From the NCBI GenBank assembly GCA_038231275.1, contig JBBRLQ010000059.1:1-20663 (forward strand): a DNA stretch of 20,663 bases. Direction: 5' to 3'. Numbering within the stretch: position 1 is the stretch's first letter; every line of letters starts with the position of its first letter. A model generated the notes under the pieces. That model made no database searches and had not been told where the DNA came from. It saw only the letters and a list, made by a program, of their open reading frames with translations. The position numbers and the translations under genes were made by a program. The DNA comes from Polyangiales bacterium. Lineage in GTDB: Bacteria; Myxococcota_A; Polyangia; Polyangiales; Polyangiaceae. This document shows, piece after piece, positions 3,347-18,780 of the stretch.

Positions 3347-3880
3347 ATGGCGTTTACGATGACGAACGTCTCGCACGCACGCGAGATGCTGGAACAGGCT
3401 CACAACAAGGTCGAACGTGCCCAGCTCACCATGGCGAAGATCCGCGAGAAGGCGGAGAGCGCGATCGCGACGGGCATTCAGATCGCCGAGGTGAGCGGCA
3501 CCTCGTTCGCATTCGGGTACGCGAACGGTCGCTGGGGCGAAAACGGCGAGCTGGCGTTCGGCGGCGTCCCTGTGGACCTTGGCGCGGCGGTCGTCCTGCA
3601 TGGCGTCGCCTTCCTTGGCGGCCTCGGCAAGTACGCCGAGCACGGGCACAATCTTGGAACGGGCGCGCTCGCCGCGTGCGGCTACCGCACGGGCGCGCAG
3701 ATTGGAGCCGCCGCCGCGAGCAAGCAGCACGCGCGGGCCCCAGGGCAGTTCGGCGGACAGGCGCCGCCGTGGCTCTTCGCCAACCCGGCGCAGCCGGTGT
3801 TCCCGCACGCGGCCCCGGCGGCGCCGGCGGCCCCGCAGCAACCCTTTGTTCCTCAGAATTTCGCGCCGCCGCAACGCTGA
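3347..3880 (+). CDS. Hypothetical membrane-associated protein, first gene of the putative virion operon
   Basis: AGGAGG RBS; N-terminal coiled coil, Gly-rich hydrophobic helices (VPVDLGAAVVLHGVAFLGGLG), P/A/Q-rich tail. Confidence 0.75.
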   Translation: MAFTMTNVSHAREMLEQAHNKVERAQLTMAKIREKAESAIATGIQIAEVSGTSFAFGYANGRWGENGELAFGGVPVDLGAAVVLHGVAFLGGLGKYAEHGHNLGTGALAACGYRTGAQIGAAAASKQHARAPGQFGGQAPPWLFANPAQPVFPHAAPAAPAAPQQPFVPQNFAPPQR

Positions 3881-3915
3881 CGTGAACGCCCCCCAACCAA
3901 GAAGGACGGACCACC

Positions 3916-4536
3916 ATGGACGGACGACAGATGATCGTGGGCGCGGAGCCTGACTACGACAAGTTGATGGTGGGAGGCGAGCCCTCGCCCCATCCCCACC
4001 AGCCCTACGGGCCTCCTCCCCACCCGTACGGGCCGCCGCCGCAGGCTTACTACCCGCCGCCGCAGCATCACGGGCACCATCCGCAGCACCACCCGCACGC
4101 GCATTACGCGCCTCCGCCTCCGCCGCACTACGCGCCCGCGCATGCGCCCGGCCCTCCGCCTCCGCCTCGGCACATCGTGAGCGAGCCCCTGACGAAGTCG
4201 CGCGACTTTCCTATCGGTTTCTCCGCGTTCGGGATTCCGCCGGGGCCACCGATCGAAATCGAGGTGAAGCCGCAGGTGCTCTTCAAGGGCAAGCGGCTCG
4301 CCGTGGCGAACTCCATCTGCAAGGACTTCGTGATCGTCGACATCAAAGTAGGGACGGCCGCGCAGCTCGCAGCAACCGGAGAGATGAGCGCCGAAGCGTT
4401 CAGCGCGCTCGCGGTCGACACCAAGATGGAGTTCGACACGGCGGCGCCAGGGACGACGATCACGATTCGCGTGCGCAACATCTCGGCCGCGCCCTCGAAC
4501 TTTCTCGCGGTGCTCTACGGCGCCGTCATGACCTGA
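3916..4536 (+). CDS. Candidate single jelly-roll capsid-like protein with Pro/His-rich N-terminal arm
   Basis: AAGGA RBS; IVGAEP/MVGGEP leader, P/H/Y low-complexity arm, then ~110 aa with about eight alternating-hydrophobic beta segments. ORF is secure, the fold is inference. Confidence 0.55.
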   Translation: MDGRQMIVGAEPDYDKLMVGGEPSPHPHQPYGPPPHPYGPPPQAYYPPPQHHGHHPQHHPHAHYAPPPPPHYAPAHAPGPPPPPRHIVSEPLTKSRDFPIGFSAFGIPPGPPIEIEVKPQVLFKGKRLAVANSICKDFVIVDIKVGTAAQLAATGEMSAEAFSALAVDTKMEFDTAAPGTTITIRVRNISAAPSNFLAVLYGAVMT

Positions 4537-4551
4537 AGGAGCCCGCTCCTC

Positions 4552-4953
4552 GTGTACTCGCCGCGCTTTTGCTTGCGATCGTTCGAGACCGCCGCCCGGG
4601 CGGAGCGCGAGAACGTGCTGATGCTCCTCTTCGAGGCGCTCATCGCTACCAACGTCGCGTACTTGCGCGCGCGTCCGCAGACGCCGGGACTCTACGCGAG
4701 CGGCATTCGCTACGTCGAAGAGCCTCCCGGCGAGGAAGACTGGCAAGACATCCCCGAGACGCTCGCCCGCGGAACCGGCGATTGCGAGGACCTTGCGTGC
4801 TGGCGCATCGCCGAGCTCCGCGTGCGCGCCGGAGAGCATGCGCATCCCTTTCTGAAGTGCGCCGCCAGAGACGACGGCGTCCTCTATCACGTCGCCGTTC
4901 GGCGCCTCGACGGCAGTCTCGAAGATCCTTCGCGTGTGCTCGGAATGCACTGA
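4552..4953 (+). CDS. Transglutaminase-like cysteine protease (Cys-His-Asp)
   Basis: AAGGAG RBS, GTG start; EDWQDIPETLARGTGDCEDLA (C78), YHVAV (H113), EDPS (D125) follow the GDCED...H...D order of the transglutaminase-like superfamily. Confidence 0.8.
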   Translation: MYSPRFCLRSFETAARAERENVLMLLFEALIATNVAYLRARPQTPGLYASGIRYVEEPPGEEDWQDIPETLARGTGDCEDLACWRIAELRVRAGEHAHPFLKCAARDDGVLYHVAVRRLDGSLEDPSRVLGMH

Positions 4954-4968
4954 ACCAGGAGAATACCG

Positions 4969-6906
4969 ATGCCCTTTGTGCTGCTTCTCATGGGGGCGGT
5001 GACGTTGGCTCTCGTCGCCTCGAACGGGTCGGCGAAGACGCCGAAGCCCGCCCGCTCTCCGTACAACCTCGATCCCGATCTCAACCCGCTGCTTCGCGCG
5101 CAGATCGAAGCGGCCCTCCACGGTGAGAATGATCCGTCGCATCTCGAAGCCTTCGCGAGCGGGCTCGAGAGCCGTTATCCCTACGCCGCGGGGTACCTGC
5201 GCACGAAGGCCGCCGTCCTTCGTCGCATGGGGACGGGAGCGCCTGCGCCCGCGGCCCTTCCTCCGGCTTCCGTCCCGATGGGTATCCCTCACCCGTCGTC
5301 GCCCGCGGCGGCGCTGCCCGTCGACGGGCTCGACGCGAACCTTCCCGACAACGTCCGCTTCAACGTCGTGGAGCTGCTCACGAGCGGGAGCGATCCGGCC
5401 GTGATCGAGACGTTCGCCGCGCAGCTTGGCAGCTTCCCGCTTGCCCAAGCCGCGCTCCGCATGCGTGCCGCGTTTCTTCGCAGCCTCACGCCGCAACAAC
5501 CCGGGCGGCCAGCCTCGATGGGACTCCCGAGCGTGCCCTCCCCTGCCCCTGCGCCTGCCCCCGCGCCTGGGCCCGCGCCTTCGCTGCGCATCCCCGGCCT
5601 CGATCCGAACATGCCGCCGGAGCTTGCGATGCAAGTGGCGCAAGCGCTCATGACGGAAAACGATCCCAGCAGGCTGCGGGAGTTCGGAAACGCGCTGCAA
5701 GCGTCGTTTCCGTCCGCGGCCACGCTGCTGCTTGCGAAGGCGAACGTGATGCCGGCGCCGCGGGCGCAGCCGAGTCCGGAGCCTGCGCCCAGCGCCCCTC
5801 TGCCTCCCTCCTTGCCCGTTCCGTCCTTCCCCGTGCCTTCGTTCCCCCTCCCCTCGGGACCCGGCCTGCTCGACGCCGGCATGACGCCCGAGGATCAAGC
5901 GCGCATCGTGACGGCCCTCAGCAGCGAGACCGACCCCGACAAGCTCCGTCAACTCGCCCACGCCGTCGCCGCTCGCTACCCGAAAGCCGCACTCCTTCTC
6001 ACCACCAAGGCGGACGCGATCGCGACCCTCCTTCTTGGCCCTCGGCCGCCCGCGATTCCAGCTCCGGCGCCGGCCCCCGCAATCCCCGCAAGCCCGGCGT
6101 TCCCGGTGCCCTTCTCTCCGCCGCTTCCCTCCTCGCTCCCGCCGCCGGCCTCCGGGAAGCGCACGTACAAGGTGCAGAGCGGGGACTTCCCGATCAAGAT
6201 CGCAAAGAAATACGGGCAGCCCGAAAGCGCGTGGAAGGAGCTCGTCGCCGCGAACCCGAACAAGCGGCGGGCGGCCGACGGAAACTTCAAGAGCCTCCTG
6301 CCGGGCGAAGAGCTCGTCATCCCTTCTTCGTGGCCCGATCGCGAGCTCGTCTTGGCCCCGGCCAAGGCGCCGAACCCTCCACCGACTTCGCCCGCGCCGA
6401 CTCCGTCGGCGGCTCCTGCCGGAGCTCTCGTTCCGCCGGGCGCCGCGGCTCTCGACCCAGGCATGCCCGCCAACGTCGCGCAGGCGGTGCTGACGGCACT
6501 CGCGACCGAAAGCGATCCAGCCACGCTTCGAGGCTTCGCCGCCTCCATCATGGCGACGTATCCGATCGCAGCAGGCGTTCTCCTCGCCAAAGCCAATGCC
6601 GTCGGCATCCTGGTGGTGGCGGCGCCTGGCGCCGCGTCGAAGCCCGCAGCGCCGCCGCGCGGCGCGCCGACGAGCGGCGGATCCACCTACCGCGTCGTGG
6701 CGGGGGACTCGCCGAGCCGCATCGCCAAGCGGCTCACCGGCACGGAGTCCCGATGGCCCGAGCTCGTCGCCGCCAACCCGCAAAAACCCAAAGCGCCCAA
6801 CGGCAACTTCAAAAGTCTGCAACCCGGCGACGTCCTCCAGCTCCCGCCGTCCTGGAGCACCGCCACCACCCCTACCAACGGAGCGCCCACCGCGGCGCGC
6901 GCGTGA
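4969..6906 (+). CDS. Membrane-anchored protein with five ~50-aa helical repeats and two LysM domains
   Basis: AGGAG RBS; hydrophobic N-terminus; five LDxx(M/L)...ExDP..L..FA......YP.AA..L..KA repeats with Pro-rich linkers; LysM-like TYKVQSGD...IAKKY...ELVAANP...LLPGEELVIP and TYRVVAGDS..RIAKR...ELVAANP...LQPGDVLQLP. Confidence 0.85.
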   Translation: MPFVLLLMGAVTLALVASNGSAKTPKPARSPYNLDPDLNPLLRAQIEAALHGENDPSHLEAFASGLESRYPYAAGYLRTKAAVLRRMGTGAPAPAALPPASVPMGIPHPSSPAAALPVDGLDANLPDNVRFNVVELLTSGSDPAVIETFAAQLGSFPLAQAALRMRAAFLRSLTPQQPGRPASMGLPSVPSPAPAPAPAPGPAPSLRIPGLDPNMPPELAMQVAQALMTENDPSRLREFGNALQASFPSAATLLLAKANVMPAPRAQPSPEPAPSAPLPPSLPVPSFPVPSFPLPSGPGLLDAGMTPEDQARIVTALSSETDPDKLRQLAHAVAARYPKAALLLTTKADAIATLLLGPRPPAIPAPAPAPAIPASPAFPVPFSPPLPSSLPPPASGKRTYKVQSGDFPIKIAKKYGQPESAWKELVAANPNKRRAADGNFKSLLPGEELVIPSSWPDRELVLAPAKAPNPPPTSPAPTPSAAPAGALVPPGAAALDPGMPANVAQAVLTALATESDPATLRGFAASIMATYPIAAGVLLAKANAVGILVVAAPGAASKPAAPPRGAPTSGGSTYRVVAGDSPSRIAKRLTGTESRWPELVAANPQKPKAPNGNFKSLQPGDVLQLPPSWSTATTPTNGAPTAARA

Positions 6907-6911
6907 CCCTC

Positions 6912-8426
6912 ATGACCGCGATTCGACAGCACGATGTGACCCTCACGGAGGGGACGTTCAGCGTCGTCCTCACCCGTCAAAAGCGCGTCCTTGCCACCAT
7001 CACGGCGCCGCTATCGCCCCTCGGCCCGCTTCATCTCGTGTTTGAGATGGACCGCGGCCTTCACCCGGACATCCTCCGCCGCGAGGCGCTCGCGAAGCGC
7101 GGACTGCACCCGTCGCAGATCATGGTCGGCGGCATCTTCGGCGACATCGGAAACTTCGTCAGCAAGGCCGCCGACACCACGTTCAACACCGCTTCGAAGG
7201 CCGTCACCACCGTGGCGCGCCCCGCTCTGCACCTCACGCGCGATGCGGTCTCGCACGCGATGAATGGCATCTCGCAGATCACGCCCTTTCTCCCGGCGCA
7301 TCTCAGAAACGACATCAGCAACGCCGCGCGCGTCGTCGCGCGCGCACGCCTCGGCGACCTGACCGCCAAGCAGTTCATTCACACGATCGGCCAAGCCGCC
7401 AAATCCGGCGTCGGCGCCGCGCGCCACATCGGAGACGCCCTGCTCGACGGCTCGCGGCTCGTCGCGAGAGTCGTCGATGTGCCCATGCACGTGCTGAAAA
7501 ACGTGCCCGGGGTCGGCAACGTCGTCGCGACGATTTCGCCGTTCCAGAAGTTTGACCACATGATCGCCGCGGTCCAGCGCGGCGATCTCCACGCGCTGAA
7601 AGAGATGGTCGCGAGCGATCTGCACACCTTCCAAGGCGTAGCGTCGCTCATTCCCGGCATTGGCACCGGCATCAGCGCGGGGCTCGAAGCAGGGCTCGCC
7701 GCGCTCGACGGCGGAAGTCCTCTCGAGATCGCCATCCACGCGGCCTACGGAGCGATCCCCATCCCCATCGGCATCCGCTCGGTGACCGACGCGATCGTCG
7801 GCGCAGTCATGGAGCTGGCGAAGTCCGGCAACGTGACCGACGCCGCGCTTGCGGCGGCGCGCAGCCGCGCGCCCGCCGGCTTTCCGCGCGACGTGTTTGA
7901 CACCCTCGCCCGCATTGTCGCCAAGAAGGTGTCGATTCAAAACGCCGGCGCCGCGCTCGCGAGCCACTACGTCGATCGCTTTGCAGGACAGGCGGGCTCG
8001 CATCTTCTCGGCGAAGCGCAGCGTCTGGTCGGCAGTGGCGCGCGACTTTCCGGTCCGCTCGCTCCGAAGCTCGGCGAGATGGCGGGCCGGGCGCTCGGCG
8101 TCGGAGGAGAGTGGTCGGGCGACGACATGCGCGCGTGGGGCCTTCCAGGTCGGCACGTCACCCTCGGCGGGGAGGAGCCCGTCGCGTACGCGGTCGGCGG
8201 CGAACAGCCCACGGCGTACGTGGTCGGAGGTGAGGAGCCCTTCGCGCTCGCCGTGGGCGGCGACTACGAAGTCGGCGGCGAAGAGCCGCCGGCCTACGCG
8301 GTGGGCGGGGAGGAGCACTTCGAGGTGGGCGCCGCGCCCGAGCTCGGTGGGATTTCGCCGGAGCTTCTGGCGATGCTCCCCCATCCGTCCGAGTGGCTCT
8401 CGGGCCGCGGCCACCACGGAGGTTGA
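6912..8426 (+). CDS. Hypothetical 504-aa Ala/Gly-rich helical protein (candidate internal virion / DNA delivery protein) with C-terminal VGGEEP repeats
   Basis: ATG 6912 lies 5 nt after the previous stop; MVGG followed by amphipathic IFGDIGNFVSKAADTTFNTASKAV; LIPGIGTGISAGL hydrophobic segment; acidic repeats at C-terminus. Confidence 0.75.
   Translation: MTAIRQHDVTLTEGTFSVVLTRQKRVLATITAPLSPLGPLHLVFEMDRGLHPDILRREALAKRGLHPSQIMVGGIFGDIGNFVSKAADTTFNTASKAVTTVARPALHLTRDAVSHAMNGISQITPFLPAHLRNDISNAARVVARARLGDLTAKQFIHTIGQAAKSGVGAARHIGDALLDGSRLVARVVDVPMHVLKNVPGVGNVVATISPFQKFDHMIAAVQRGDLHALKEMVASDLHTFQGVASLIPGIGTGISAGLEAGLAALDGGSPLEIAIHAAYGAIPIPIGIRSVTDAIVGAVMELAKSGNVTDAALAAARSRAPAGFPRDVFDTLARIVAKKVSIQNAGAALASHYVDRFAGQAGSHLLGEAQRLVGSGARLSGPLAPKLGEMAGRALGVGGEWSGDDMRAWGLPGRHVTLGGEEPVAYAVGGEQPTAYVVGGEEPFALAVGGDYEVGGEEPPAYAVGGEEHFEVGAAPELGGISPELLAMLPHPSEWLSGRGHHGG
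8100..8351 (+). repeat. Coding repeat array of nine (V/L)G(G/A) units, partly 30-nt periodic
   Basis: VGGE...LGGEEPVAYA VGGEQPTAYV VGGEEPFALA VGGDYE VGGEEPPAYA VGGEEHFE VGAAPE LGG. Confidence 0.85.
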
Positions 8427-8429
8427 CCC

Positions 8430-9128
8430 GTGCACGCCTCGCAGACCCATCGCCAGCAGGACATCAACTTCGGCGATCGGACGAAGTTGACCGGCTCGAC
8501 GACGAAGACGCTCGCGTGGATGAACCTCGACGAGTCGGCGTCGTTCACCGTGTACGCCGACGCCCGCTTCACCGCCGGGCCGCCGGCGGCGCTGCCGCAC
8601 CTCGCGGCCATCGTCACGATCGAATGGGGCGCGGGCGCGGCGACGGTCTCCGCGGAGTACCGCATCGTGGGGCGGCTCCGCGTCCCGCTCGCCGCAAGCG
8701 CGATCCGCGTGGAAGGCCACCTCGAGGACGTCCGAGGATTGCCCGTCCCCGGCGACGTCGTCGCCGAGGTGGCCGCCTTCATCGCCCGCGGCACGGACGG
8801 CGAGACGATACCCAACGCGCAGACGCGGGTGCAGTCCGGCGCGCAGGGCATCCTCAGCACGCGATCCGAGCGCGTCCTCGCCGTCGAGGGGTTCAACGCA
8901 GGGGCAGGCTCCCTCTGGGTGATGCTCTTCGAGGGGCCAGCGTTGCCAGCCGCGGGCGCCGCGCCGCGCATGGCGGCGCCCGCCCCTGCCGGAGCGCCCT
9001 TCCGCATGCGACCGGCGAGCGCGCGAGAATTTCTAGGAGGCGTCGTCTGGGCGGCCAGCGCCGCGCCGCTCACCTTCACGCCGGTGCCGGGAGCCGCCCT
9101 CTACCTCGAAGCGGAGATGGTGCCATGA
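8430..9128 (+). CDS. Beta-rich two-domain hypothetical protein (candidate second capsid / vertex / spike protein)
   Basis: GGAGG RBS, GTG start; alternating hydrophobic strands in both halves (SFTVYAD, IVTIEWG, IRVEGHL; VLAVEGFN, LWVMLFE, GVVWAAS, LYLEAEM). Confidence 0.65.
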   Translation: MHASQTHRQQDINFGDRTKLTGSTTKTLAWMNLDESASFTVYADARFTAGPPAALPHLAAIVTIEWGAGAATVSAEYRIVGRLRVPLAASAIRVEGHLEDVRGLPVPGDVVAEVAAFIARGTDGETIPNAQTRVQSGAQGILSTRSERVLAVEGFNAGAGSLWVMLFEGPALPAAGAAPRMAAPAPAGAPFRMRPASAREFLGGVVWAASAAPLTFTPVPGAALYLEAEMVP

Positions 9129-9889
9129 CCGCGCGGGCGGACGAGATCGCGCGCTACGCGCGCAAGGCGCACGTCGTCGTCGAGGCGTGGAGCTCGCTGT
9201 TTGGGCTGCCGCCCACGATGCGCTCGCTCGTCCGGGTGATGGCTGTCGCCGAGTTTGAGACGCATCTGGGCGACGCGCGCGGATGGACGGGCGAGCACAA
9301 CTGGGGAGCGATCGTGAAGCGGACGCTCTCCGCGCTCGAACGCGCCACGCTCGCCGGACAGGGCATCACCGCCGAGGGAGGCAGCACAGCGCTCGCCGCC
9401 GCGCGCGCCCTCTTGCCCGCGGCGTCCAATGAAGCGCTCCACATCGATCGCTCTCCAGGGCGGGGACACCACTTCGCCTGGTTTTGGGCTTTCCCTTCGG
9501 ATGCCGAAGCCGCTCGGAAGTTTCTCCAGGTGCTCGTCGTGCAGAGGCCCGGCGTGCGCGCCGTGCTCGAGCACGACGACGTCACGGACGTGGCGCGCGC
9601 CATGTACGACGCGCACTATTACGAGGGCGACAGCGTGAACGATCCGGAGGCGAACGTGCGCGCCTACGCGCGACGCCTCCGTGAGCTCGAGCCGCGCATC
9701 GCGGATGCGATCCTCGCCCCGCTGCCCCCTACCCCGCCCGCGCCGGGCAACCCGACCGCGCCGGGCAACCAAGCCGTCGACACGCCGCCGAGGTTCGCGC
9801 CGCGTTCCGTCACCGCCGGCGTCCATGTCTTCCTCGGCGCCATCGTTCTGCTCTTCGGATCGATCCTCGCGCGCGGCGGCCATCGATGA
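9125..9889 (+). CDS. Lysozyme-fold / glucosaminidase (GH73-like) peptidoglycan hydrolase with C-terminal membrane anchor
   Basis: ATGA overlap; MAVAEFETHLG...HNWGAI...FWAFPSDAEAARKF...AMYDAHYYEG resembles the A..E..G / N.FGI / F..F.S / GY motif order of GH73-like enzymes; Pro linker, then VFLGAIVLLFGSILA. Confidence 0.6.
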   Translation: MTARADEIARYARKAHVVVEAWSSLFGLPPTMRSLVRVMAVAEFETHLGDARGWTGEHNWGAIVKRTLSALERATLAGQGITAEGGSTALAAARALLPAASNEALHIDRSPGRGHHFAWFWAFPSDAEAARKFLQVLVVQRPGVRAVLEHDDVTDVARAMYDAHYYEGDSVNDPEANVRAYARRLRELEPRIADAILAPLPPTPPAPGNPTAPGNQAVDTPPRFAPRSVTAGVHVFLGAIVLLFGSILARGGHR

Positions 9890-10653
9890 GCGGCCTTTTC
9901 CCCACCGTGGTGGTCGCCAGCGATTTGCGATCGCTCAAAGATCGCATCAACCCGCAGGTCTCCCTCGTCGACGCGATCGTGCAGCGGACGGCGTCTCTCG
10001 ATGCCGCGACGCGCGGCGAGTGGCAGGCCTTCGCCGCGCAATGGCGTGAGTTTTTTGGCAGCGATGGCTTTCTGACGTCGTCGCAGATGGACGCGGGCCA
10101 AGCGCTCGAAAGGAAGCTCCGCGATCTGAAGTCGGTCCTCTCCTCGCAATGCCCAGGGGTCCCCTCCCCGGCTCCGAAACGCGACGTCCCGTTTCTTCCC
10201 ACGTGGGTGACGCCAAACCTTGTGCGCGAGCAGAAGACGCGCATCGGGCCGCGCGTCCGAGACGTGGGGCGGAAGGCGGCTCAGGCTCCCGGGCTTGAGG
10301 AGGGCGTCCGCCGCGCGTGGGCAGAGTTCCATCACGCGTGGTCGGCGTTTGAGAGCGAGGCCGAAGAGTGGACCCATGGCGCCGCGCAATGGATGAATGC
10401 CCTCGCCTTCGAGGACGTCCTTCCCGAGTGGGAGGACGCGATCGCGATGGCGAGCGCCGGGTTCGCCGCGCCGGCGCCCGCGCCCGCGGAGACCTGGTTT
10501 CCACCCGCGCGCGGCGTCGCGCCAGGACTGCCGGTGCCTGCCGCGTCGGCGGGAACATCCACATCCGCGGGGAGCGGAGCCGCGGTCCTCGCCATCGGCG
10601 CGGCCGTCCTTGTGGTCGGCGTGGTCCTCCTCAAAGGCAGCCATCCCTCATGA
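9886..10653 (+). CDS. Tail-anchored membrane protein with two tandem W..F...W..F helical domains
   Basis: ATGA overlap; internal duplication; C-terminal AAVLAIGAAVLVVGVVLLK. Confidence 0.75.
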   Translation: MSGLFPTVVVASDLRSLKDRINPQVSLVDAIVQRTASLDAATRGEWQAFAAQWREFFGSDGFLTSSQMDAGQALERKLRDLKSVLSSQCPGVPSPAPKRDVPFLPTWVTPNLVREQKTRIGPRVRDVGRKAAQAPGLEEGVRRAWAEFHHAWSAFESEAEEWTHGAAQWMNALAFEDVLPEWEDAIAMASAGFAAPAPAPAETWFPPARGVAPGLPVPAASAGTSTSAGSGAAVLAIGAAVLVVGVVLLKGSHPS

Positions 10654-11057
10654 GCGGCCTCCTCCCCACGGTGGTCACGCCCGACGACGTGCGCGCGAGC
10701 AAGGCCCGCCTCGATGCGTTTGCCCGCGCCTTCGATCGCAGCGTCACCGCGTGCCCGCGGCTTGCTCCGTCTATCCACCAGAGCTGGTCCGATTTCTATC
10801 GCGGATGGCGGCGCTTTGCCGATGCGGATCCTTCGTGGTTTCACGCCGCGGCCGAGTTCGACGCCGCCCAGCAGTACGAGGAGCACTTGATCGCCTGGCA
10901 GGCGCAGCTCGGCCCTCTCTGTCCGATCGCCGGTCCTTCTCTCACAAGGCCCCCGGGTGCGTCGTCGACAGGAACGGTCGAAACCACCATCAAGACGGTG
11001 GCCATCGCGGCAGCGGTCGTGGCCGTCGCGCTCGCCGTACGGGAGATCACGCGATGA
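10650..11057 (+). CDS. Tail-anchored membrane protein, single-domain paralogue of the upstream gene
   Basis: ATGA overlap; MSGLLPTVVTPDDVR vs MSGLFPTVVVASDLR; WSDFYRGWRRF; C-terminal VAIAAAVVAVALAVR. Confidence 0.75.
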   Translation: MSGLLPTVVTPDDVRASKARLDAFARAFDRSVTACPRLAPSIHQSWSDFYRGWRRFADADPSWFHAAAEFDAAQQYEEHLIAWQAQLGPLCPIAGPSLTRPPGASSTGTVETTIKTVAIAAAVVAVALAVREITR

Positions 11058-11989
11058 ACGAGTCTCACGCAAGCACCTCTCGGATCGCCAAGCGGTCGCC
11101 AAGCGATCGCCACGGCTTCGACGCCCAGGACGATGGGCCATTCGTCCCCGACGACCTCGTCCAGTGGGTGCACGAGCAGATCGCACGCGGCTGCTCGCTC
11201 CTCACGCTTCGGCAGCGCGCCGACGAGGGCGAGACGCTTGTCTGCAACGCGCCCCTGCCCGGCGACGGCGCGCAGAGCGTCGCGGCCTCGATTCACCTGC
11301 GCGCCGCGGCAGAGGGCCGCTTTCTCCGCGGTCCGACGCTCTTCGTCCTCTACGCCTTCAAGGACATCGCGCGGGAGCACTGCGACCGCAAATCGTTCCG
11401 CGTCGAGGGCGAAACGTTCTCGCGAAGTGGGGAGACCGAGCCTCCGACGGTCAGCGGGATCAACGCGATGCTGATGCGCCACGCCGAAGGCGCCACCAAG
11501 ATCGCGCTCGGCCACACCTCGCACATCATCGAGCAGTACAAGGTGCTCCTCCAGCAGCGGGACCGGCGCATCACCGAGCTCGAGACGTCGCTCCGCGAGG
11601 CGTCCGCCATGCGCGAATCGCTCGTCATGCTCGAGCACGAGCGCGCCCTCGCGCTCCACCGGGCGAAGGACGACGAAAAGCGCAGCGACTTCATGCGCGA
11701 CAAGCTCGATCTCCTCATCCCCGTCGTCGCCGGGAAAATGCTCGGGGCAGGCGGCTCCCCCGTGCCGCCGATCGTGAACGACGAGATGCTGCGCCAGCTT
11801 CTCGGTTCGCTGTCGCCCGACCAGCTCACGAAGCTCCAGAGCATTCTCGGTCCGGACCAGCAGGCCGTCGTGGGCGATCTCTACATGAGGTACGCGCAGC
11901 GCTCGCGCGATCCCAACGTGGCGGCCGCGGCGAAGCGCGAAGCGGCGCAGTCGCGCGGCGCCCCCGACGAAGCACGAGGGAATGACTGA
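11054..11989 (+). CDS. Hypothetical protein with alpha/beta N-domain and coiled coil
   Basis: ATGA overlap at 11054, GGGAG upstream; GC3-rich coding pattern; coiled coil LLQQRDRRITELETSLRE. Confidence 0.7.
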   Translation: MNESHASTSRIAKRSPSDRHGFDAQDDGPFVPDDLVQWVHEQIARGCSLLTLRQRADEGETLVCNAPLPGDGAQSVAASIHLRAAAEGRFLRGPTLFVLYAFKDIAREHCDRKSFRVEGETFSRSGETEPPTVSGINAMLMRHAEGATKIALGHTSHIIEQYKVLLQQRDRRITELETSLREASAMRESLVMLEHERALALHRAKDDEKRSDFMRDKLDLLIPVVAGKMLGAGGSPVPPIVNDEMLRQLLGSLSPDQLTKLQSILGPDQQAVVGDLYMRYAQRSRDPNVAAAAKREAAQSRGAPDEARGND

Positions 11990-12033
11990 AGGGACGTCCA
12001 CGCAGCCGCACGCGAAAGGTTCAGGGAGCAGGC

Positions 12034-12231
12034 ATGAACGAAGCAAAAACAATCTTGAGCAAAAGAGGCGACCAGGCGGTCAAAGCCGGGCGTCTGTTCC
12101 TGGACGCGATCTGCGGCGACGACCGCGATCACGTCGAAAGCGAAACACCTTACGCGACCCACGCCGTAACCCCGGAACGGTCGCTCCTCATCATCGACGC
12201 CGAGCTCGAGGACGAAGGAAGGAAACCATGA
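12034..12231 (+). CDS. Small acidic hypothetical protein
   Basis: GGGAG RBS; stop overlaps next start (ATGA). Confidence 0.55.
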   Translation: MNEAKTILSKRGDQAVKAGRLFLDAICGDDRDHVESETPYATHAVTPERSLLIIDAELEDEGRKP

Positions 12232-12593
12232 GTGAAAATCATCATCGACCGCCGCATCACCCGCAAACGCTGACGCGCTTCCGAGGGCTACGCGGGGAAT
12301 ACGGAAATCTCGAGGTGCGAGCCGAGTCGGCGCATGCCGTCCGCTTTCAGCTCACAGGGGAGTTTCTGGATCTGAATCGGAACGACGCGCAGGAGATCAT
12401 CCGGGTCCTCGCGGCATGGCTCGCCGAGCCGGTAAGCCGCATCGTCATCGACAACGATGGCGGCTCCACCACCGTGGTGGTCGACAACGACGCCGCTCCG
12501 CACGCTCGCCGGACGGAGGTCGTCGTGGTGGAGAACGAGGCGAGCGAACGTTCCCACGTCGAAGGAGGAAATCACCCACGACGCCCTTCCTGA
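12228..12593 (+). CDS. Hypothetical protein (121 aa)
   Basis: AAGGAAGGA RBS, ATG 12228 (MSENHH...), globular-looking composition unlike the Arg-rich upstream extension. Confidence 0.6.
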   Translation: MSENHHRPPHHPQTLTRFRGLRGEYGNLEVRAESAHAVRFQLTGEFLDLNRNDAQEIIRVLAAWLAEPVSRIVIDNDGGSTTVVVDNDAAPHARRTEVVVVENEASERSHVEGGNHPRRPS

Positions 12594-12628
12594 CGCGGAT
12601 TGACGCCCCTGTAAGGGCGACGTCCGCG
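12594..12628 (+). terminator. Imperfect stem-loop right after the last gene of the operon
   Basis: CGCGGA..CGCCC-CTGTAA-GGGCG..TCCGCG; no strong U-tract. Confidence 0.3.
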
Positions 12629-12818
12629 ACACCGTTTGTCCAATCGGGCGAGAGATTGCCGCCCACCCGTGAGGGTCTGCTCCTCCGGCGCCTCGCGCGC
12701 CAAATAGTAAAGCGCCTGTGGCGCTTCCTTCGAGCGCGAACGAGTCTCTGAGTGCCGCCGCGCACGCGCTCTGTGCGCGGCAATTTCCGAGTCCGCGGAT
12801 CGATCGAGAGAGCGAGAC

Positions 12819-14654
12819 ATGAACATCGCGCGCAAAAGCGCTGAGAACGCGAAGAGAAGCGCCCATGATCGTGACGCGCGACGCGCGCATCGCCGCCTCG
12901 CGCGCGTGCGGATCGCGTCGCTGCGCGCGAAGATGAAGGCGGCCATCGCCGCGCGCAACGCGAAGATGAAGGAGATCGTCGCCACGTGCCGCGAGCAGCG
13001 GCGAGCGGTGCGCGTGCAGATCAAGACGATGTGGAACGACGGCCGGCGCGCGATCCGTGAACGCGCCGAGGCGGAGCGTCAACGCGTCCGCGACGAATGC
13101 GACGTGGAAAAGGACCGCGCGAAGCAGGCGTGCGACTCCGCGATCGATCTCGTGCGCGCCGAGCTAGCCGCGGAGAAGAAGCGCGCCGCCGAGGAGCGTC
13201 GCATCGGGCGTGAAGAGCGGACGCGCCATCAGGCGCTCACGCGCTCGCACGTCACGGGCGCGGCGCACACGTTCGTCGTGCGCGCGGCCATGCTCGGGGC
13301 CCTCGGCCCGCTCTTCGAGCGCGTGCGACCCGCACCGGGCCAGTCCCGTCCCGAAGCGATCCTGCACTATGCGGAGACGCACCCCGAGCAGGTGCATGCG
13401 GTTCTGCACCCCGGCGCAGACCGCGCCATCGCGGAGACGAAGGCGGAGATGGCCGCCGCGGTGCGGGCGATGGGCGCGCCGACGACGCGGGATCTCGAGC
13501 GCGCGCTCCGATCACGCAAACGCAGCGCGACGACCGAGGTGTCGAGACCGAAAGCGTCCGAGCCGAAGGCGACACGCGCGGCGGGCCGCGTGGAGCCCCC
13601 CGCCGCGGCATCGTGGACGGGTGACGGCTACGACGACCGGATCCTCTGCTCGCGTTGTGGCTGCAAGGGCGGGCAACATCGCGGCTCCGATGGCAAGTGC
13701 CCGAAGACGGCCGCATGGGGACGCCCTGCGCCCGATCCGATGTCGAACCATGCGCTCGACAAAACGGCGCTCGACGCCGCCCTTGCGGCGTACTGGTCCG
13801 CCAACGCCACGTTCTACCGGCCTGTGACGGCCCGCGGGAAGGACGATGCGGCGGTGCCAGCCGAGCGTCCGCCGAACGCGTACGAGCAGAAGAAGGCCGC
13901 ACGCGTCGACCGCATGCGCGCGCGCGCGGACAAGAAGAAGGCCGAAGCAGCGGGGGCGTTCATGCGCGCGGACAGCATCGCGTCAGTGATCCCGGCGGGT
14001 CAGCCGATCCTTGTCGGACACCACTCCGAGAAACGCCACAGGCGCGATATCGCGCGCATCGACCAAGGTTTCCGCAAGTCGTTCGAGCTGACGCGTGAAG
14101 CGGAGCAGCTTGCGCGTCGCGCCGACTTCGCCGAGCGAAACGATGCGATCTCGAGCGACGATCCGAACGCTGTCGACAAGCTTCTCGCAAAGCTCGCAGA
14201 GCTGAACACGAAGCGCGCCCGCTGGAAGCTCGTCAACGAAGCCGTCCGTGCCGCGAAGAACGAGGGCGACCTTCGCGCGTCGCTCGCGCGCCTCGGCGTT
14301 AACGAAAACCTCGCTTGCGATCTCCTCACGCCCGACTTCGCCGGCCGCATGGGCATCGCCGACTATCAGTTCAAGAATGCTGGCTCCGAAGCGCGTCGTC
14401 TTGAGCAGCGCATCAAGCAGCTCGAGACCGCGGCGAAGGCGCCGGAGAAGCCGGCCGAGACGATCGGGCACGCGCGCATCTACGAGGCCGACAGCCGCGT
14501 GCGCGTGGAGTTCCCGACGATACCCCCGGAGGGCGTGCGCAAGAAGTTGAAGGGCGCCGGCTTCCATTGGTCGCCGACCGTGGGCGCATGGCAGCGGCAC
14601 GCGAGTAGCGGCGCTTGGTACCACGCGCGCGAAATCGCCGCGGCGATGACGTGA
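12819..14654 (+). CDS. Fusion: basic coiled-coil domain + Cys/His knuckle + DUF3560-family domain
   Basis: C-terminal IPAGQPILVGHHSEKRHRRDIARI, ISSDDPNAVDKL, RVRVEFPTIP...LKGAGFHWSP..GAWQR are DUF3560 hallmarks; central CSRCGCKGGQHRGSDGKCP. Confidence 0.8.
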   Translation: MNIARKSAENAKRSAHDRDARRAHRRLARVRIASLRAKMKAAIAARNAKMKEIVATCREQRRAVRVQIKTMWNDGRRAIRERAEAERQRVRDECDVEKDRAKQACDSAIDLVRAELAAEKKRAAEERRIGREERTRHQALTRSHVTGAAHTFVVRAAMLGALGPLFERVRPAPGQSRPEAILHYAETHPEQVHAVLHPGADRAIAETKAEMAAAVRAMGAPTTRDLERALRSRKRSATTEVSRPKASEPKATRAAGRVEPPAAASWTGDGYDDRILCSRCGCKGGQHRGSDGKCPKTAAWGRPAPDPMSNHALDKTALDAALAAYWSANATFYRPVTARGKDDAAVPAERPPNAYEQKKAARVDRMRARADKKKAEAAGAFMRADSIASVIPAGQPILVGHHSEKRHRRDIARIDQGFRKSFELTREAEQLARRADFAERNDAISSDDPNAVDKLLAKLAELNTKRARWKLVNEAVRAAKNEGDLRASLARLGVNENLACDLLTPDFAGRMGIADYQFKNAGSEARRLEQRIKQLETAAKAPEKPAETIGHARIYEADSRVRVEFPTIPPEGVRKKLKGAGFHWSPTVGAWQRHASSGAWYHAREIAAAMT

Positions 14655-14666
14655 AGGAGAAGGAAC

Positions 14667-15407
14667 GTGCTCACCCGAAAACAAGCGAAGGAGCAACGGC
14701 GAGGGATCCAGCGCGACATCAACCGCGACTTGAAGATGAAGGAGCGCGCGAAGCTGCTCGCGACCCGGCAGAAGCTCCGCGATGCGCACGCCCACAAAAA
14801 GGAGCGCATGAAGGAGCTGGTCGAGCGATGCCGCTCCGAAAGGCTCACCATCCGCGCGCGGCTCAAGGAGATGCGCGCGCGTATCCTGCAGGAGCTGCAC
14901 GACACGGCGCGGCTAGAGCGCCAAGCCGCGCGCGACGCGTGCCTTCTTCGCAAGGGCGACGGAAAGACGACGTGCGCGACGGCGATCGCGTGCGCGCGCC
15001 GCGACTACCTTGCCGAGAAAACCTACCAGCAAGACATGCGACGCATCGAGCGCGCTAACCGCGAGCGCCATCGTGCCGCGCGCGTCCATAGGTCGCGCGC
15101 CGAGCGTCGCAGCGAGTCGGACGATGAAGTGCGCCAGAACATCAGCGCCGAGCTCGTCGCGCTCTTCGAGCGCGTGAAGCGGTCCATCAAGGCGATGCCC
15201 CGCATGTCGCGGACGGAGGTGTTCCTGAAGTACGCGGAGGAGAACCCGCACGAAGTGTTCGCGGTGATCGAGGACAAGACCGAGCGGCTGATTCGCGACC
15301 TCGAGCGAAAACACGCAGAGGCCGTGAGACAAGCGCGCCCTCGCAAGGCGTCAGCCTCGCGCTCTCGTTACACCGCGTCGGAGCTCTCCTCGGCGGTCCC
15401 CTTCTGA
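14667..15407 (+). CDS. Highly basic coiled-coil protein, paralogue of the N-terminal domain of the upstream gene
   Basis: AAGGAG RBS, GTG start; shares MKE.V..CR, ER...RD.C, LFERV, SR.E..L.YAE..P..V.AV motifs. Confidence 0.8.
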   Translation: MLTRKQAKEQRRGIQRDINRDLKMKERAKLLATRQKLRDAHAHKKERMKELVERCRSERLTIRARLKEMRARILQELHDTARLERQAARDACLLRKGDGKTTCATAIACARRDYLAEKTYQQDMRRIERANRERHRAARVHRSRAERRSESDDEVRQNISAELVALFERVKRSIKAMPRMSRTEVFLKYAEENPHEVFAVIEDKTERLIRDLERKHAEAVRQARPRKASASRSRYTASELSSAVPF

Positions 15408-15891
15408 TGCTTGAGGCGTCGACCACCGACAAACACCGCGAAGACCTGCACGCGTGCGGCGATGGAGCGCGCAAATTCCTAGGAACCATCACTGAACGTC
15501 CATCACCCGTGCTTGCATGCGCAGGAAAGATGGACATCGGCCCTGGAAAATGGGCTATCGCTCGATCCCGAGAACCGTGGGGAAGAACATGTAAGCAGCG
15601 CTGAACAAAACGCGAATCGCCGAGTCTGTCACCGTTGGAAGCGGTGGCTGGCTTGGCCAGCAGGACTCGGCGAATCGTCTTACCCGGACGTGAAGCCAGA
15701 GTAGGGGACCTCCATGTCTCGCGCAACCCAAAAAGGAAGCGCCGGCTACAAGGTTCCGAGGTGGCAAGCGTCGAGCGGAAACCCGCTCCGTAAGCCGATT
15801 CGAGCTGCGCATGAGCGGCCAATCCTCTGACTTTGGGCTGCGGGTGCACCGGGCGGGTCCTGGTGCGTGACCGCGAGAAACGAGAGCGACG

Positions 15892-17076
15892 ATGTGGACG
15901 ACGTGGAATCCGGCCGCGGCGATGACGTTGGATACGAGCGATGACCCGGGCCTAAAGAAGCGCCTCCGTTTCCAGGAGCGACTACGAGAACGCTTCGTGA
16001 TGTCGGAGCTGCGCGAGCACTCCACCTTCAGTTCAATGAGGCGCGGGCCTTGGGCCGTCTTCCGCGTGATCCTCGACCATCTCGGGGACCGCCCTGAGGC
16101 CTGGCCTGGCATGCGGCGGATCGGCCGCCAAGCCGGTTACACGAGCCTGCGCTCTGTCGCGGCGTTCGTCCACGCGCTCGAGGCAGGCGGGTTCCTGTGC
16201 TTGCGTCGTGAGCACCTGTCCGACGGTACCGAGAGGATCTTCTACTCGCTTGGCCCCTCGGCGTTCGAGGCGCTCGAGGCCTTCGAGACGCGCTGGCCGC
16301 GAGGGAACGGACCGACGGTCGCCCCCGCAAAGCCACGTCCGGCCCTGGAAACCGTTGCCCCCCCCCCCGCAATGGTTTCTCCGCCCCCCCCCGCAGGGGT
16401 TGCGGGGAAACTAAGATCTCCAGATCTAAGAGAACCTTCTTCTTCTTCGGAAGACCTCCCGATCTGGAACGGCACCGCCGAAAAAGAAGAAATGGATCAA
16501 ACTCCAGTGGTCGAGACGGCGGAAACCAAAGAGGCGGTCGTGCGCGAAGCGTCGACAACAGCCAACACGCCTGTGGAAGACGCTGGCGTCACTGCCGCCC
16601 TTCACGCCATCCTCCGTACGCTCAACCCCACGTGGCTGCTCGCGACGGCACCCTCGCTTGCGACCTACGACGCGGACGTCGTTGTGAAGGCGCGGGCGAT
16701 CCTTCAGAGCCTGCCGCCCGAGGGCGACGCTACGGCGCTGTTCGGCGAAGCCGCCGCCGGCGCAATGCTCAAGTCGAAGGGACAAACGACCCTTCGTTAC
16801 GTGTGCAAGACGTCCGAGCACTTCATCGCGCACGTCGATCGCAAGCGCGCTCACGACGCAACCGAGGCGAAGAAGGCCACCCGCGCCGCTCAGCAGGCCC
16901 GTGACGAGGTTTTCGGAGTATCCACGCGCATCCCCCCCGCTTCAGCTTCTCGGGCTTCGGAGAGGCGTGTAGAAGCGTCGGTTGATGCTATGCGGGCAGC
17001 GATGCAAGCGGCCGCGCGGGAGAGATCGAAGACTGGGGAGTTGTTCCCTGGGGCAATCGAAAGGAAAGCGTCATGA
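15892..17076 (+). CDS. Winged-HTH replication initiator-like protein (phage replisome-organiser / plasmid Rep type)
   Basis: VILDHLGDRPEAWPGMRRIGRQAGYTSLRSVAAFVHALEAGGFL matches HTH_36-like initiators; Pro-rich linker coded by short repeats; start uncertain (15892, 15922 or 16000). Confidence 0.65.
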   Translation: MWTTWNPAAAMTLDTSDDPGLKKRLRFQERLRERFVMSELREHSTFSSMRRGPWAVFRVILDHLGDRPEAWPGMRRIGRQAGYTSLRSVAAFVHALEAGGFLCLRREHLSDGTERIFYSLGPSAFEALEAFETRWPRGNGPTVAPAKPRPALETVAPPPAMVSPPPPAGVAGKLRSPDLREPSSSSEDLPIWNGTAEKEEMDQTPVVETAETKEAVVREASTTANTPVEDAGVTAALHAILRTLNPTWLLATAPSLATYDADVVVKARAILQSLPPEGDATALFGEAAAGAMLKSKGQTTLRYVCKTSEHFIAHVDRKRAHDATEAKKATRAAQQARDEVFGVSTRIPPASASRASERRVEASVDAMRAAMQAAARERSKTGELFPGAIERKAS

Positions 17077-17573
17077 ACACGGCAGAGGCCGCGAAGGTAC
17101 CCCTGCCCTCCTGGCTTACCCACCATGTCTTCGGGATGGTGTCGCTGCGGAGACGCGCAACGCTGGCACTGCTGTTTGCGGCGAGGACGCCGAGCAAAGC
17201 CCTCGCCGCGCGGATCCATGACCTTCCCCGGATAGGCCTACAGGCCGTCGCGAGAGAGGCGATCAAGAGAGCGCGCCTCGGGCTTCCCGAGCTGACCGGG
17301 GCGGAGATCGACGCGATTCACGCGGAGGCCGAAAGGCCTGAGCGCGACGAGCAAGAACGTTGGGAGCAAGAACAGCGACAGCGCGACGAGGACCGGGCCA
17401 CTGAGGATGCCGTGCGGCTTGCGGCGAGGATGACGAGGGAGCAACTCTACGAGCTTGTTGCCGGTCTCGATCACGGTCGCCGCACCATCCTGCGGATGGC
17501 ATTGCTCTTGGCCGCAGCGCCCACGCCAACAAACGTCATCCCAATCGGCCGCGTTCGGGACGCCGTGCTGTAG
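17073..17573 (+). CDS. Hypothetical protein coupled to the rep-like gene
   Basis: ATGA overlap, AAGGA RBS; ends NVIPIGR-type tail. Confidence 0.6.
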   Translation: MNTAEAAKVPLPSWLTHHVFGMVSLRRRATLALLFAARTPSKALAARIHDLPRIGLQAVAREAIKRARLGLPELTGAEIDAIHAEAERPERDEQERWEQEQRQRDEDRATEDAVRLAARMTREQLYELVAGLDHGRRTILRMALLLAAAPTPTNVIPIGRVRDAVL

Positions 17574-17769
17574 ATCTCGACCCGGCCCTCCCCGGCCCTC
17601 CCCGGCTGACCTCGGGCGAAGGCCGCTGGTTCGTGCTTCCCGAGCGTGCTGGGGAGCAGACATTTCTAAGTCACCGGAATTCAGGTCTCTGGGGACTTAA
17701 AATTCTCGCGCGGGTCGTTGTCGAGGATGAGGCGCGCATCCGTGATGCGCTCCTCCGCCCAGGATGGCG

Positions 17770-18080
17770 CCCGCTTACCCGCAGCCCCGCTTACCCGCAG
17801 CCCGGAGTCCCGCAGCCCCGGCATCCCGCAGCCCCGGCATCCCGCAGCCCCGGCATCCCGCAGCCCCGGCATTCCCCGCTTACCCGCAGCCCGGAGTCCC
17901 GCAGCCCCGGCATCCCGCAGCCCCGGCATCATGGCCCCGGCATCCCCCGCTTACCCGCAGCCCCGGAGTCCCGCAGCCCCGGAGTCCCGCAGCCCCGGCA
18001 TCATGGCCGCGGCATTCCCCGCTTACCCGCAGCCCCGGAGTCCCGCAGCCCCGGAGTCCCGCAGCCCCGGCACCCTGCAG
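17770..18080. repeat. Octamer-periodic tandem array (candidate centromere parS/parC or iterons)
   Basis: 15 copies of CCCGCAGC alternating with CCCGGCAT / CCCGGAGT / CCCGCTTA; higher-order 71-72 bp unit starting at 17875, 17946 and 18018; ends ~50 bp upstream of parA. Confidence 0.9.
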
Positions 18081-18129
18081 TACCGCCCACAACTTGGCCC
18101 GGGGTCGGGCGGGCGGGTAGGGTTCGCGC

Positions 18130-18780
18130 ATGTTTGTTATGGCGTTTGTTTCGATGAAAGGCGGGAGCGGGAAGACAACGCTCTGCACCAATGTCGCTGC
18201 CGCGGTTCATGGCACCGGCCAGCGCGTCCTTATTCTCGACGCGGACCCGCAGGGAAGCGCCCTGGCATTTTGCGCCCGAGGCGCCGAGATGAATCACGAC
18301 ACTCCCTCTTGCTTCGCCGTTGACGGCAGCGCGCTTCGCCGCGACGTCGATCGGCTCCGCCCATCGTGGGATCTGATCTGTATCGACTCGCCGGCCCGGC
18401 TGGGCAAGGAGACGCGAAACGCTATCCTCGCCGCGGACATGACGGTGCTGCCGGTCACCCCGGGTCCTTACGACTTGTGGGCAGCCAGGGAGACAGCCGA
18501 AATCATCGAAGAGGCACGCGCGTCGAAAGATGTGATCGCGAGGTCGGTGCTCAACCGAACGTCGCGCACAAAGCTCGCGCAAAAAACAGAGCGTGCACTC
18601 TCCGAGCTTGGAATCGATTCGCTCGACACCACGGTCGGATCGAGAACGGTGTTCGGCGAGGCGGCTCTTGTTGGCCGCGGCGTCGTTAGCCACGCACCAA
18701 CGAGCGATGCCGCTCGCGACGTGCGGCGGCTCGTGTCAGCCATCTTTGCCGCCCACGAGGGCGTGGAGCGAGTCGCCTGA
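18130..18780 (+). CDS. parA: ParA-family (type Ib / ParF-like) partition ATPase
   Basis: Deviant Walker A KGGSGKTT, A' LILDADPQGS, Walker B ICIDSPA; short, no N-terminal HTH. Confidence 0.93.
   Translation: MFVMAFVSMKGGSGKTTLCTNVAAAVHGTGQRVLILDADPQGSALAFCARGAEMNHDTPSCFAVDGSALRRDVDRLRPSWDLICIDSPARLGKETRNAILAADMTVLPVTPGPYDLWAARETAEIIEEARASKDVIARSVLNRTSRTKLAQKTERALSELGIDSLDTTVGSRTVFGEAALVGRGVVSHAPTSDAARDVRRLVSAIFAAHEGVERVA

Follow-up and report, generated by a model that had tools for sequence, protein, structure and literature searches.

Cysteine proteases that cut virion precursors after Gly-Gly or Ala-Gly are known from adenoviruses (adenain), African swine fever virus (ASFV) and poxviruses (the core proteases), and in adenain-type proteases the catalytic His precedes the Cys. 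The C39 double-glycine leader peptidases, papain-like domains of ATP-binding cassette (ABC) exporters, remove an N-terminal leader that ends in G-G, G-A or G-S. The adenovirus fibre and the PRD1 protein P5 combine an N-terminal docking tail with a stalk and a jelly-roll knob. The adenovirus protease follows the rule (M/I/L)XGG↓X, as given in the available part of PMC4246237, and LapG, a member of the BTLCP group (Peptidase_C93), cleaves between two alanines (PMC4694147, available part). Here we describe an operon from a Polyangiales bacterium, contained in a stretch of 20,663 nucleotides (nt; contig JBBRLQ010000059.1, the window), in which a conserved glycine-containing leader on one protein, P0001, is encoded next to a minimal transglutaminase-fold cysteine hydrolase, P0002, while leader-like units recur in a third protein, P0004. 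An earlier note on this DNA took P0001 for a capsid candidate and proposed an adenovirus-style maturation system, in which the enzyme processes or cross-links virion precursors at VGG. The comparison tentatively points to a leader-peptidase or recognition system instead, with a logic closer to that of LapG or the double-glycine leader peptidases than to adenovirus maturation.

The nine operon genes lie on the + strand at 3347-11989. Codon-position G+C places them in a run of + strand genes between 3347 and about 12600, in which neighbours are 3-35 nt apart or overlap slightly; the motif-bearing genes sit in the first half of the operon. P0001 (206 amino acids (aa), 3916..4536) consists of leader, stalk and knob and starts at an ATG at 3916, with a GAAGGA ribosome-binding site about 9 nt before it. 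Only 15 nt separate it from the gene for P0002 (133 aa, 4552..4953), so that the enzyme gene does directly follow P0001. The LysM protein P0003 (645 aa, 4969..6906) and P0004 (504 aa, 6912..8426) come next.

The P0001 leader, residues 1-23 (3916..3984), is made up of MDGRQ, MIVGAEP, DYDKLM and VGGEP in this order; residues 6-23, MIVGAEPDYDKLMVGGEP, are encoded by 3931-3984. P0004 carries IMVGG at residues 70-74 (7119..7133) and, in its tail, nine (V/L)G(G/A) units at residues 397, 418, 428, 438, 448, 454, 464, 472 and 478. These units form an acidic array (8100-8351), mostly x-Y-A-V-G-G-E-E-P, beneath which Tandem Repeats Finder detects a 30-nt period at 8164-8263 (3.3 copies, 70% matches). 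Translation confirmed all of these motifs, including the MIVGAEP and LMVGGEP of the leader, as the earlier note had listed them. The pattern VG[GA]E[EDQ]?P occurs twice in P0001, three times in P0004 and in none of the other 18 called proteins of the window (4822 aa); for [VI]G[GA][ED] the counts are two, six and zero. In 2000 composition-preserving shuffles of each protein, neither pattern ever attained its real count; both patterns had been defined post hoc, after the data had been seen. The VGG-type motifs are real and not a product of chance.

P0001 and P0004 are otherwise unrelated, as had been claimed, because BLASTP finds no significant similarity between them (best E value 1.5). The segments that it pairs are GRQMIVGAE of P0001 with GRHVTLGGE of P0004, and DYDKLMVGGEPSP with DYE...VGGEEPP (three gap positions after DYE). 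GRHVTLGGEEP is the first full unit of the P0004 tail and resembles the leader sequence GRQMIVGAEP over 9-11 residues. Just two sites, LMVGG↓E and IMVGG↓I, obey the strict adenovirus rule; at P4 of the tail units stands A, V or E, outside the rule for that position.

Homologues of P0001 numbered 138, and 114 of the best 120 considered are at least 170 aa long. [MTIL][IMV]VG stands within the first 30 residues of 79 of these 114, in two copies in 31, a DYDxxL-like element is present in 105 and a [VMLST][GA][GA][ED]x element in 78; the three conserved leader elements are R-x-M-I-V-G, D-Y-D-x-L and G-[GA]-E-P. On a quick tree of the C-terminal domain (110 rows), 24 of the 35 rows without the strict leader motif form one clade (SH-aLRT 94), and several of the remaining ones are near-misses such as MIIG or MMVG. 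The R-x-M-I-V-G unit is almost exclusive to P0001-type N-termini among the six-frame open reading frames (ORFs) of all the loci described below (about 216 kb), and DYDELM is separated from G-[GA] by a spacer whose length differs by 1-5 residues. Judged by these alignments, the P0001 leader is a real conserved element, kept in most homologues.

The leader is followed by a Pro/His/Gln/Tyr-rich linker (residues 24-94, 3985..4197), variable in length and sequence and predicted by AlphaFold2 (AF2) to be disordered (predicted local distance difference test, pLDDT, 46-61), and by a C-terminal beta-sandwich (residues 95-206, 4198..4533; pLDDT 81-98). Nearly all of the 35 invariant columns of the family fall inside this domain of about 110 residues. 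Foldseek returned no match of P0001 at E < 1e-3 in PDB or BFVD. The top PDB match of the domain is the furin P domain (E 1.9e-3), and lower ones are VP2 of infectious bursal disease virus (IBDV), the coat protein of the tymovirus Physalis mottle virus (PhMV) and the capsid protein of Sulfolobus polyhedral virus 1 (SPV1), the capsid proteins at E 0.014-0.023 and SPV1 with template-modelling (TM) scores of 0.38/0.42. BFVD yielded uncharacterised small viral proteins, minor tail proteins and collagen-C1q proteins, the best being uncharacterised (E 1e-3). As modelled, the domain is a generic jelly-roll-like knob on a stalk and no demonstrated capsid protein.

The catalytic codons of P0002 are those of Cys78 (4783-4785), His113 (4888-4890) and Glu124-Asp125 (4921-4926). 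Its close homologues number 339, with a length of 133-148 aa. Among 29 aligned sequences, which share 54-86% identity, D77, C78, D80, W84, R85, H113, E124 and P126 are invariant and Asp125 is near-invariant, with a frequency of at least 90%. The conserved N-terminus reads MY(A/S)P(R/H)F and is polar, and a hydrophobicity scan revealed neither a signal peptide nor a hydrophobic segment in P0002. In the AF2 model (pLDDT 88.7), Cys78 is the first residue of helix 78-92 and His113 is part of strand 109-117, in a papain-like geometry; alignment and model both display the Cys-His-Asp order with the Cys at a helix start. Cysteine proteases or isopeptidases of the transglutaminase-like kind make up ten of the 12 best PDB fold matches found by Foldseek (3isr three times, LapG four times, TglA, TgpA and PeiW; E 0.04-0.33, TM 0.36-0.43), and the sole PDB match by sequence is the LapG-type 4u65 (E 0.24-0.48), over W..E.L..G.GDCED.A around the catalytic Cys.

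A profile search of 1.84 billion representatives identified 2759 relatives of P0002 (50% identity clusters), 1896 of them at E ≤1e-10. Fifty-six of the best 150 were scanned against Pfam, and eight match Transglut_core (PF01841), two of them above the curated 23-bit cut-off: P0368 (28.5 bits) and P0510 (26.9 bits), both linked to P0002 at E <1e-30. Among the 29 aligned members, one matches Transglut_core (E 0.18) and one matches Peptidase_C93 (E 0.015, under the 27-bit cut-off). Because the catalytic residues, the model, the fold matches and the Transglut_core-matching relatives agree, P0002 is placed in the transglutaminase-like superfamily, as a divergent and minimal member with an intact Cys78-His113-Asp125 set. 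The earlier description of the enzyme as transglutaminase-like is thereby upheld. The P0002 family is large and is not represented by a dedicated model in Pfam, NCBIfam or PHROG.

Some relatives of P0002 have been elaborated. In P0364, P0381, P0387 and P0411 (also in P0378 and P0487), an intein-like insertion stands directly before the catalytic Cys, G-D-[C...H-N]-C-E-D-L-A, and the catalytic Cys would be the intein +1 residue; matches to Pfam Intein_splicing or Hint, all below cut-off, were obtained for three insertion-bearing relatives. Forty-seven of the best 150 relatives are at least 230 aa long, many of them tandem doubles or triples. In the tandem proteins that were read, including the one on the plasmid pSa001 (see below), the Cys of the first copy is often replaced (GDAED, GDSED, GAAGP), which suggests a pair of pseudo-enzyme and enzyme.

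Among the described systems, P0002 is like LapG in its Cys-His-Asp order and in the surroundings of the Cys, and LapG is among its best fold matches. It differs in being about 50 residues shorter, in having no signal peptide and in falling short of the Peptidase_C93 model, and neither a LapD-like partner nor a large adhesin is encoded near it. With the Transglut_core superfamily it shares the catalytic core and, as modelled, the fold class, although P0002 and its close relatives miss the Pfam model. The likeness to the adenovirus and ASFV proteases holds, by analogy, for the site chemistry at two sites and breaks down at the enzyme: the P0002 fold is different, no adenain or Ulp structure is found among the 50 best fold matches, the order Cys78 then His113 is opposite to that of adenain, and the window contains no virion genes. 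The P0001 leader, which ends in G-[GA] followed by E-P, recalls the C39 substrates. However, no ABC transporter accompanies P0002 here, the supposed cargo is not a peptide but a protein of 200 aa, and the distance from DYDELM to G-[GA] is not fixed; no C39 match of P0002 was seen by Pfam or Foldseek.

A scan of genome contigs gave 12 loci, all in metagenome-assembled genomes (MAGs) of Myxococcota save one (L004) binned as Gemmatimonadaceae. The nine operon genes keep their order across the loci; by tblastn, the first gene (177 aa) is present in 8/12, always at the same position, the gene for the 232-aa protein in 10/12 and that for the 308-aa protein in 12/12. Homologues of P0001 and P0002 are adjacent in all nine loci whose contigs cover the DNA upstream of the P0004 homologue, and seven of these nine have MIVG-type leaders. 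The proteins of L004 group with those of Polyangiaceae despite the bin, which probably reflects a binning error or transfer. L002 and L003 are two different whole-operon copies on two contigs of one MAG (JAYTOU01).

P0002 also matches, at 47% identity, the plasmid pSa001 of Sandaracinus amylolyticus MSr10575 (NZ_CP070226.1, 210 kb; L013). According to the available part of PMC8048970, just one other plasmid that replicates autonomously in myxobacteria was known before it. A distantly related syntenic operon occupies 10207-18957 of pSa001, with ParA nearby. Its gene order begins with that for a 177-aa protein weakly similar to the product of the first operon gene (E 2e-5), followed by that for a 278-aa protein whose C-terminal domain is homologous to that of P0001 (hhalign probability 96.6%, E 6e-10) and, adjoining it, a tandem P0002 whose first copy lacks the Cys. 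Next come the positional analogue of P0003, which carries a peptidoglycan-binding annotation, and relatives of the 232- and 308-aa proteins (BLASTP E 3e-14 for the latter). Extra to this operon, and last in the series, are an LRAT (NlpC/P60-type) protein and an M23 DD-metalloendopeptidase anchored at its C-terminus. A 288-aa protein of pSa001 was rejected as a P0004 homologue (hhalign probability 3%, E 0.014) and is a positional analogue only; in plasmid records, tblastn found no match to P0004.

The enzyme evidence, the 15-nt linkage, the adjacency in nine of nine loci and the conserved leader together suggest that P0001 and P0002 form a pair of leader and reader. P0002 would then be a cytoplasmic minimal cysteine hydrolase that reads the P0001 leader, a conserved N-terminal signature of 25-45 residues acting as a terminal recognition peptide. 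It would bind the leader and cut after the small-residue pair G-G or G-A, in parallel to LapG, the nearest solved relative by sequence, which cuts Ala-Ala, and to the double-glycine leader peptidases, which cut after GG; candidate sites are G-[GA] in the leader and [TV]-[AG]-G in P0004. In the clade of the window, the P0004 tail would have gained copies of the leader-type unit and become a second client. The motif appears to move between protein types, since acidic aromatic x-G-G or x-G-A units are found at P0001-type N-termini (L007, pSa001) as well as in the P0004 tail (window clade). P0001, P0002 and P0004 all lack hydrophobic segments in the hydrophobicity scan and would therefore share a compartment. 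It is by analogy with the described peptidases that P0002 may be regarded as a protease rather than another hydrolase, the leader as its substrate and the small-residue pair as its cut position. This leader-peptidase reading needs no virion context, and none is evident here. The predicted complex of P0002 with P0001 residues 1-45 scored 0.00 and 0.00 against a mark of 0.32, a result that gives no answer and counts neither way. A cysteine hydrolase beside a conserved terminal peptide offers a concrete and cheap assay for the large unnamed P0002 family, and if processing is true, leader-peptidase logic would be added to the transglutaminase fold.

P0004 is built from a conserved N-terminal domain (residues 1-48), a variable linker, a conserved core (about residues 72-360) and a variable tail. 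It has no match in Pfam, PHROG, NCBIfam or PDB, and its best ESM Atlas score is 0.83. Of 133 homologues found, 114 were analysed, six that cover 20-45% of the query having been dropped. IMVGG lies at the junction between the variable linker and the start of the core (phi-F-D-D-I-G). Column counts among the 114 are T 74 and V 33 at position 72, G 54 and A 52 at position 73, and G 83 at position 74; the tripeptide preceding the core, found in 98, is TAG in 42, VGG in 18 and TGS in nine. According to this alignment, IMVGG coincides with a [TV][AG]G of moderate conservation where the core begins. Most P0004 tails are His-rich or Ala-rich, and 67/114 finish with an RMVQPL-like end, many of them after His-rich repeats. 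Two or more acidic x-G-[GA]-[ED] units occur in only 16/114. Among close relatives, the number of xGG[ED] copies ranges from seven in the P0004 of the window to four in P0005 and two or three in P0006 and P0007. In the clade of the window the acidic array comes after the ancestral R-V-L-R-P-phi motif and is therefore an appended extension. A VGGDEP tail is seen in L001 only among the loci. A co-variation of P0001 leader type with P0004 tail type was considered and rejected: loci with His-rich tails retain the MIVG...GAEP leader. Leader and tail thus vary independently, and the enzyme is retained where either of them is gone.

Several observations weigh against the leader-peptidase reading. Clear VGGEEP-type tails are limited to 11/114 P0004 homologues, which form one clade on a core-only tree (SH-aLRT 97.9), and with an array restricted to one clade the tail is no general substrate. 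The motif conservation on which the earlier note relied thus applies to the P0001 leader and not to the P0004 tail. Nine sites 10 residues apart also resemble maturation sites less than they do a low-complexity expansion or an array for multivalent binding. The enzyme persists where the leader does not: in L005 the leader is reduced to DYDALLH, with both MIVG and G-[GA]-E-P gone, in L007 acidic YETGG/YDTGA units replace the MIVG leader, and the 278-aa protein of pSa001 begins with DYFEVGGAEDY and GYGGE units. The enzyme adjoins a P0001 homologue in nine of nine loci and on pSa001, whether or not the MIVG form is present. That P0002 is much more strongly conserved than the leader, and that its family is much wider than the P0001 and P0004 families, suggests a more general or a different substrate. 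The peptidoglycan-binding proteins of the operon and the peptidoglycan-cleaving ones of pSa001 make a cell-wall substrate a live alternative. Finally, the enzyme assignment itself has its weak sides: 0/500 fold matches of P0002 have E ≤0.001, all of them being weak (E ≥0.016), and P0002 itself matches no Pfam, NCBIfam or PHROG model. As a separate observation, Asp125 is replaced by Cys (E-C-P-S) and Glu79 by Lys in the P0002 homologue of L005 (7811-8203), with Cys78, His113 and Glu124 kept.

A docking motif that is not cleaved is a serious, if doubtful, alternative. The leader and the tail units would tether both proteins to a common partner, such as a particle, a membrane complex or a further product of the operon, P0001 would be fibre- or spike-like, and P0002 would act elsewhere. 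P0001 does resemble the fibre and spike proteins in its conserved short N-terminal motif, flexible repeat-rich stalk and C-terminal beta-sandwich, and the BFVD matches to minor tail and collagen-plus-C1q-type proteins fit a stalk-plus-knob build. The motifs are terminal and located on disordered linkers, the nine units of P0004 form a multivalent array, G-G is not strictly kept (VAGE, VSGD and TGAE are found as variants), and AF2 places a short strand at MIV (P0001 residues 6-8), at low confidence. Set against this, no partner has emerged, one P0001 clade has lost the motif, most P0004 tails do not carry it, and every fold match is weak (E ≥1e-3). In contrast to the known fibres and spikes, P0001 has no significant fold match and no penton or capsid partner, and there is no sign of a virion.

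The live alternative of a cell-wall substrate would make P0002 an amidase, endopeptidase or isopeptidase of peptidoglycan stem peptides that, together with P0003 and the membrane-anchored proteins, opens the wall so that the element can leave, enter or be transferred; the VGG motifs would have nothing to do with it. We consider this unlikely. The pseudomurein endoisopeptidases PeiW and PeiP are among the fold matches of P0002, the next gene encodes two LysM domains, and the pSa001 operon adds the peptidoglycan-binding protein, the M23 DD-metalloendopeptidase and the LRAT protein; XepA-like neighbours of the 232-aa protein (0.89) provide a lead only. Against it speak the absence of a signal peptide or hydrophobic segment from P0002, its very high conservation, unusual for a lysin, the many tandem relatives with a first copy that lacks the Cys, and the lack of a match to any PHROG lysin family.

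Low-complexity coincidence is quite improbable. A fast-evolving acidic P0004 tail would resemble the leader by chance, with no function in common, and the restriction of this tail class to one clade, its varying copy number among close relatives, the His- or Ala-rich nature of most P0004 tails and a G+C content of 68%, which favours Gly, Ala, Glu and Pro, are all in its favour. Yet the patterns have no match in the other 4822 residues and the shuffles never reproduced their counts, the likeness of GRQMIVGAEP to GRHVTLGGEEP spans 9-11 residues, and similar units recur at the P0001-type N-terminus in L007 and on pSa001.

The most far-reaching alternative, and a decidedly remote one, is that the operon represents the morphogenetic module of a group of Polyangiales viruses or virus-like episomes, so far unrecognised, that would be non-tailed and associated with membranes. 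P0004 and the knob protein P0001 would be precursors with a portable GG-type targeting peptide, removed during assembly by a protease of the transglutaminase fold, which is not known from virion maturation. The earlier reading of P0001 as a capsid candidate in a virion setting found no support: P0001 has generic beta-sandwich matches only and no match to a structural family, no capsid, portal, terminase or packaging ATPase was detected among the window proteins with Pfam, PHROGs and NCBIfam, and P0001, P0002, P0004 and the 232- and 308-aa proteins gave no tblastn match in 50,697 phage records. No literature that joins 'transglutaminase-like', 'virion' and 'maturation protease' was found. Should particles be found, they would define a new virus group; if neither processing nor particles hold, a conserved linear motif of unassigned role remains. 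A true transglutaminase that hardens an assembly by Gln-Lys isopeptide bonds, with the P0001 stalk as acyl donor, is very hard to credit: it agrees with the superfamily fold and with the Pro/Gln/His-rich stalk, a composition typical of transglutaminase substrates, but the family alignment contains no conserved Gln in leader or stalk, the tail units have one Gln, and among solved structures the nearest relatives are hydrolases.

The operon belongs to a Polyangiales-specific mobile element that is integrated, on small contigs or on a plasmid. The flanks of the loci encode ParA, helix-turn-helix (HTH)/MerR regulators, DUF3560 proteins, one Prim-Pol and ordinary chromosomal genes, and neither an integrase nor a virion gene was found in them. 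A role in anti-phage defence found no support, as 0/9 operon proteins match PADLOC. The available parts of a preprint on myxobacterial viruses (10.64898/2026.09.14.751636) and of the pSa001 paper (PMC8048970) do not mention this operon. It is conserved in Polyangiaceae MAGs and on the Sandaracinus plasmid, and none of its counterparts elsewhere has been characterised. Very little is known about mobile elements of myxobacteria.

The remaining operon genes code for proteins with few recognisable features. The product of the first gene (177 aa, 3347..3880, called by G+C at third codon positions) is helical in its N-terminal part and contains a single hydrophobic segment, rich in Gly (residues 69-87), and the library scans gave no family match. 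P0003 contains two LysM domains (Pfam, E 2.8e-9), to which part alone phrog_380 matches, and its hydrophobic residues 1-22 may be an N-terminal anchor or a signal. It also carries five helical repeats of about 45 residues, D-P-x-x-L-x-x-F-A-x-x-L-x-x-x-Y-P-x-A-A-x-x-L-x-x-K-A, with Pro/Ala/Ser spacers between them. The 232-aa beta-rich protein (8430..9128), conserved in the operon, has no sequence match and nothing in PDB by profile; its nearest protein-language-model clusters are XepA-domain and other Uroviricota proteins, with 178-187 shared features. A conserved protein of about 250 aa (9128..9889), whose start is uncertain, has a C-terminal hydrophobic anchor (residues 226-252) and no family or PDB match. 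A further anchor of this kind (residues 225-254) was located by the hydrophobicity scan in the 255-aa protein encoded at 9886..10653. The last conserved operon gene (11063..11989) encodes the 308-aa protein, with a coiled-coil C-terminal half.

G+C ranges from 66 to 73% across the window. Upstream of the operon, and divergent from it, lie an HTH_17/excisionase-like gene and a methyltransferase gene; the spermidine-synthase-like methyltransferase (712-2160, - strand) matches PADLOC mad2 (E 6e-18). Downstream follow a DUF3560 protein, ParA, an Arc-like protein, Fic/Doc and an HTH gene at the window end. The DUF3560 protein and the product of the following gene (12819-14654 and 14667-15407) have an Arg/Glu-rich N-terminal region in common, and the C-terminus of the former matches a PHROG annotated as primase (E 1.3e-22). 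Both genes have tblastn matches at corresponding places in several loci, some of which contain two or three such paralogues in a row; literature on DUF3560 was limited to Klebsiella and E. coli work. An ORF at 17633-18157, made of repeated S-R-S-P-G-(I/V)-P-Q-P-R-H units with a weak Cornifin match and codon statistics that are not coding-like, may be repeated non-coding DNA between the gene at 17073 and parA. The Arc-like protein adjoins the Fic/Doc protein at 18780-20095, and a helix-turn-helix ORF (20334-20663) runs off the end of the window.

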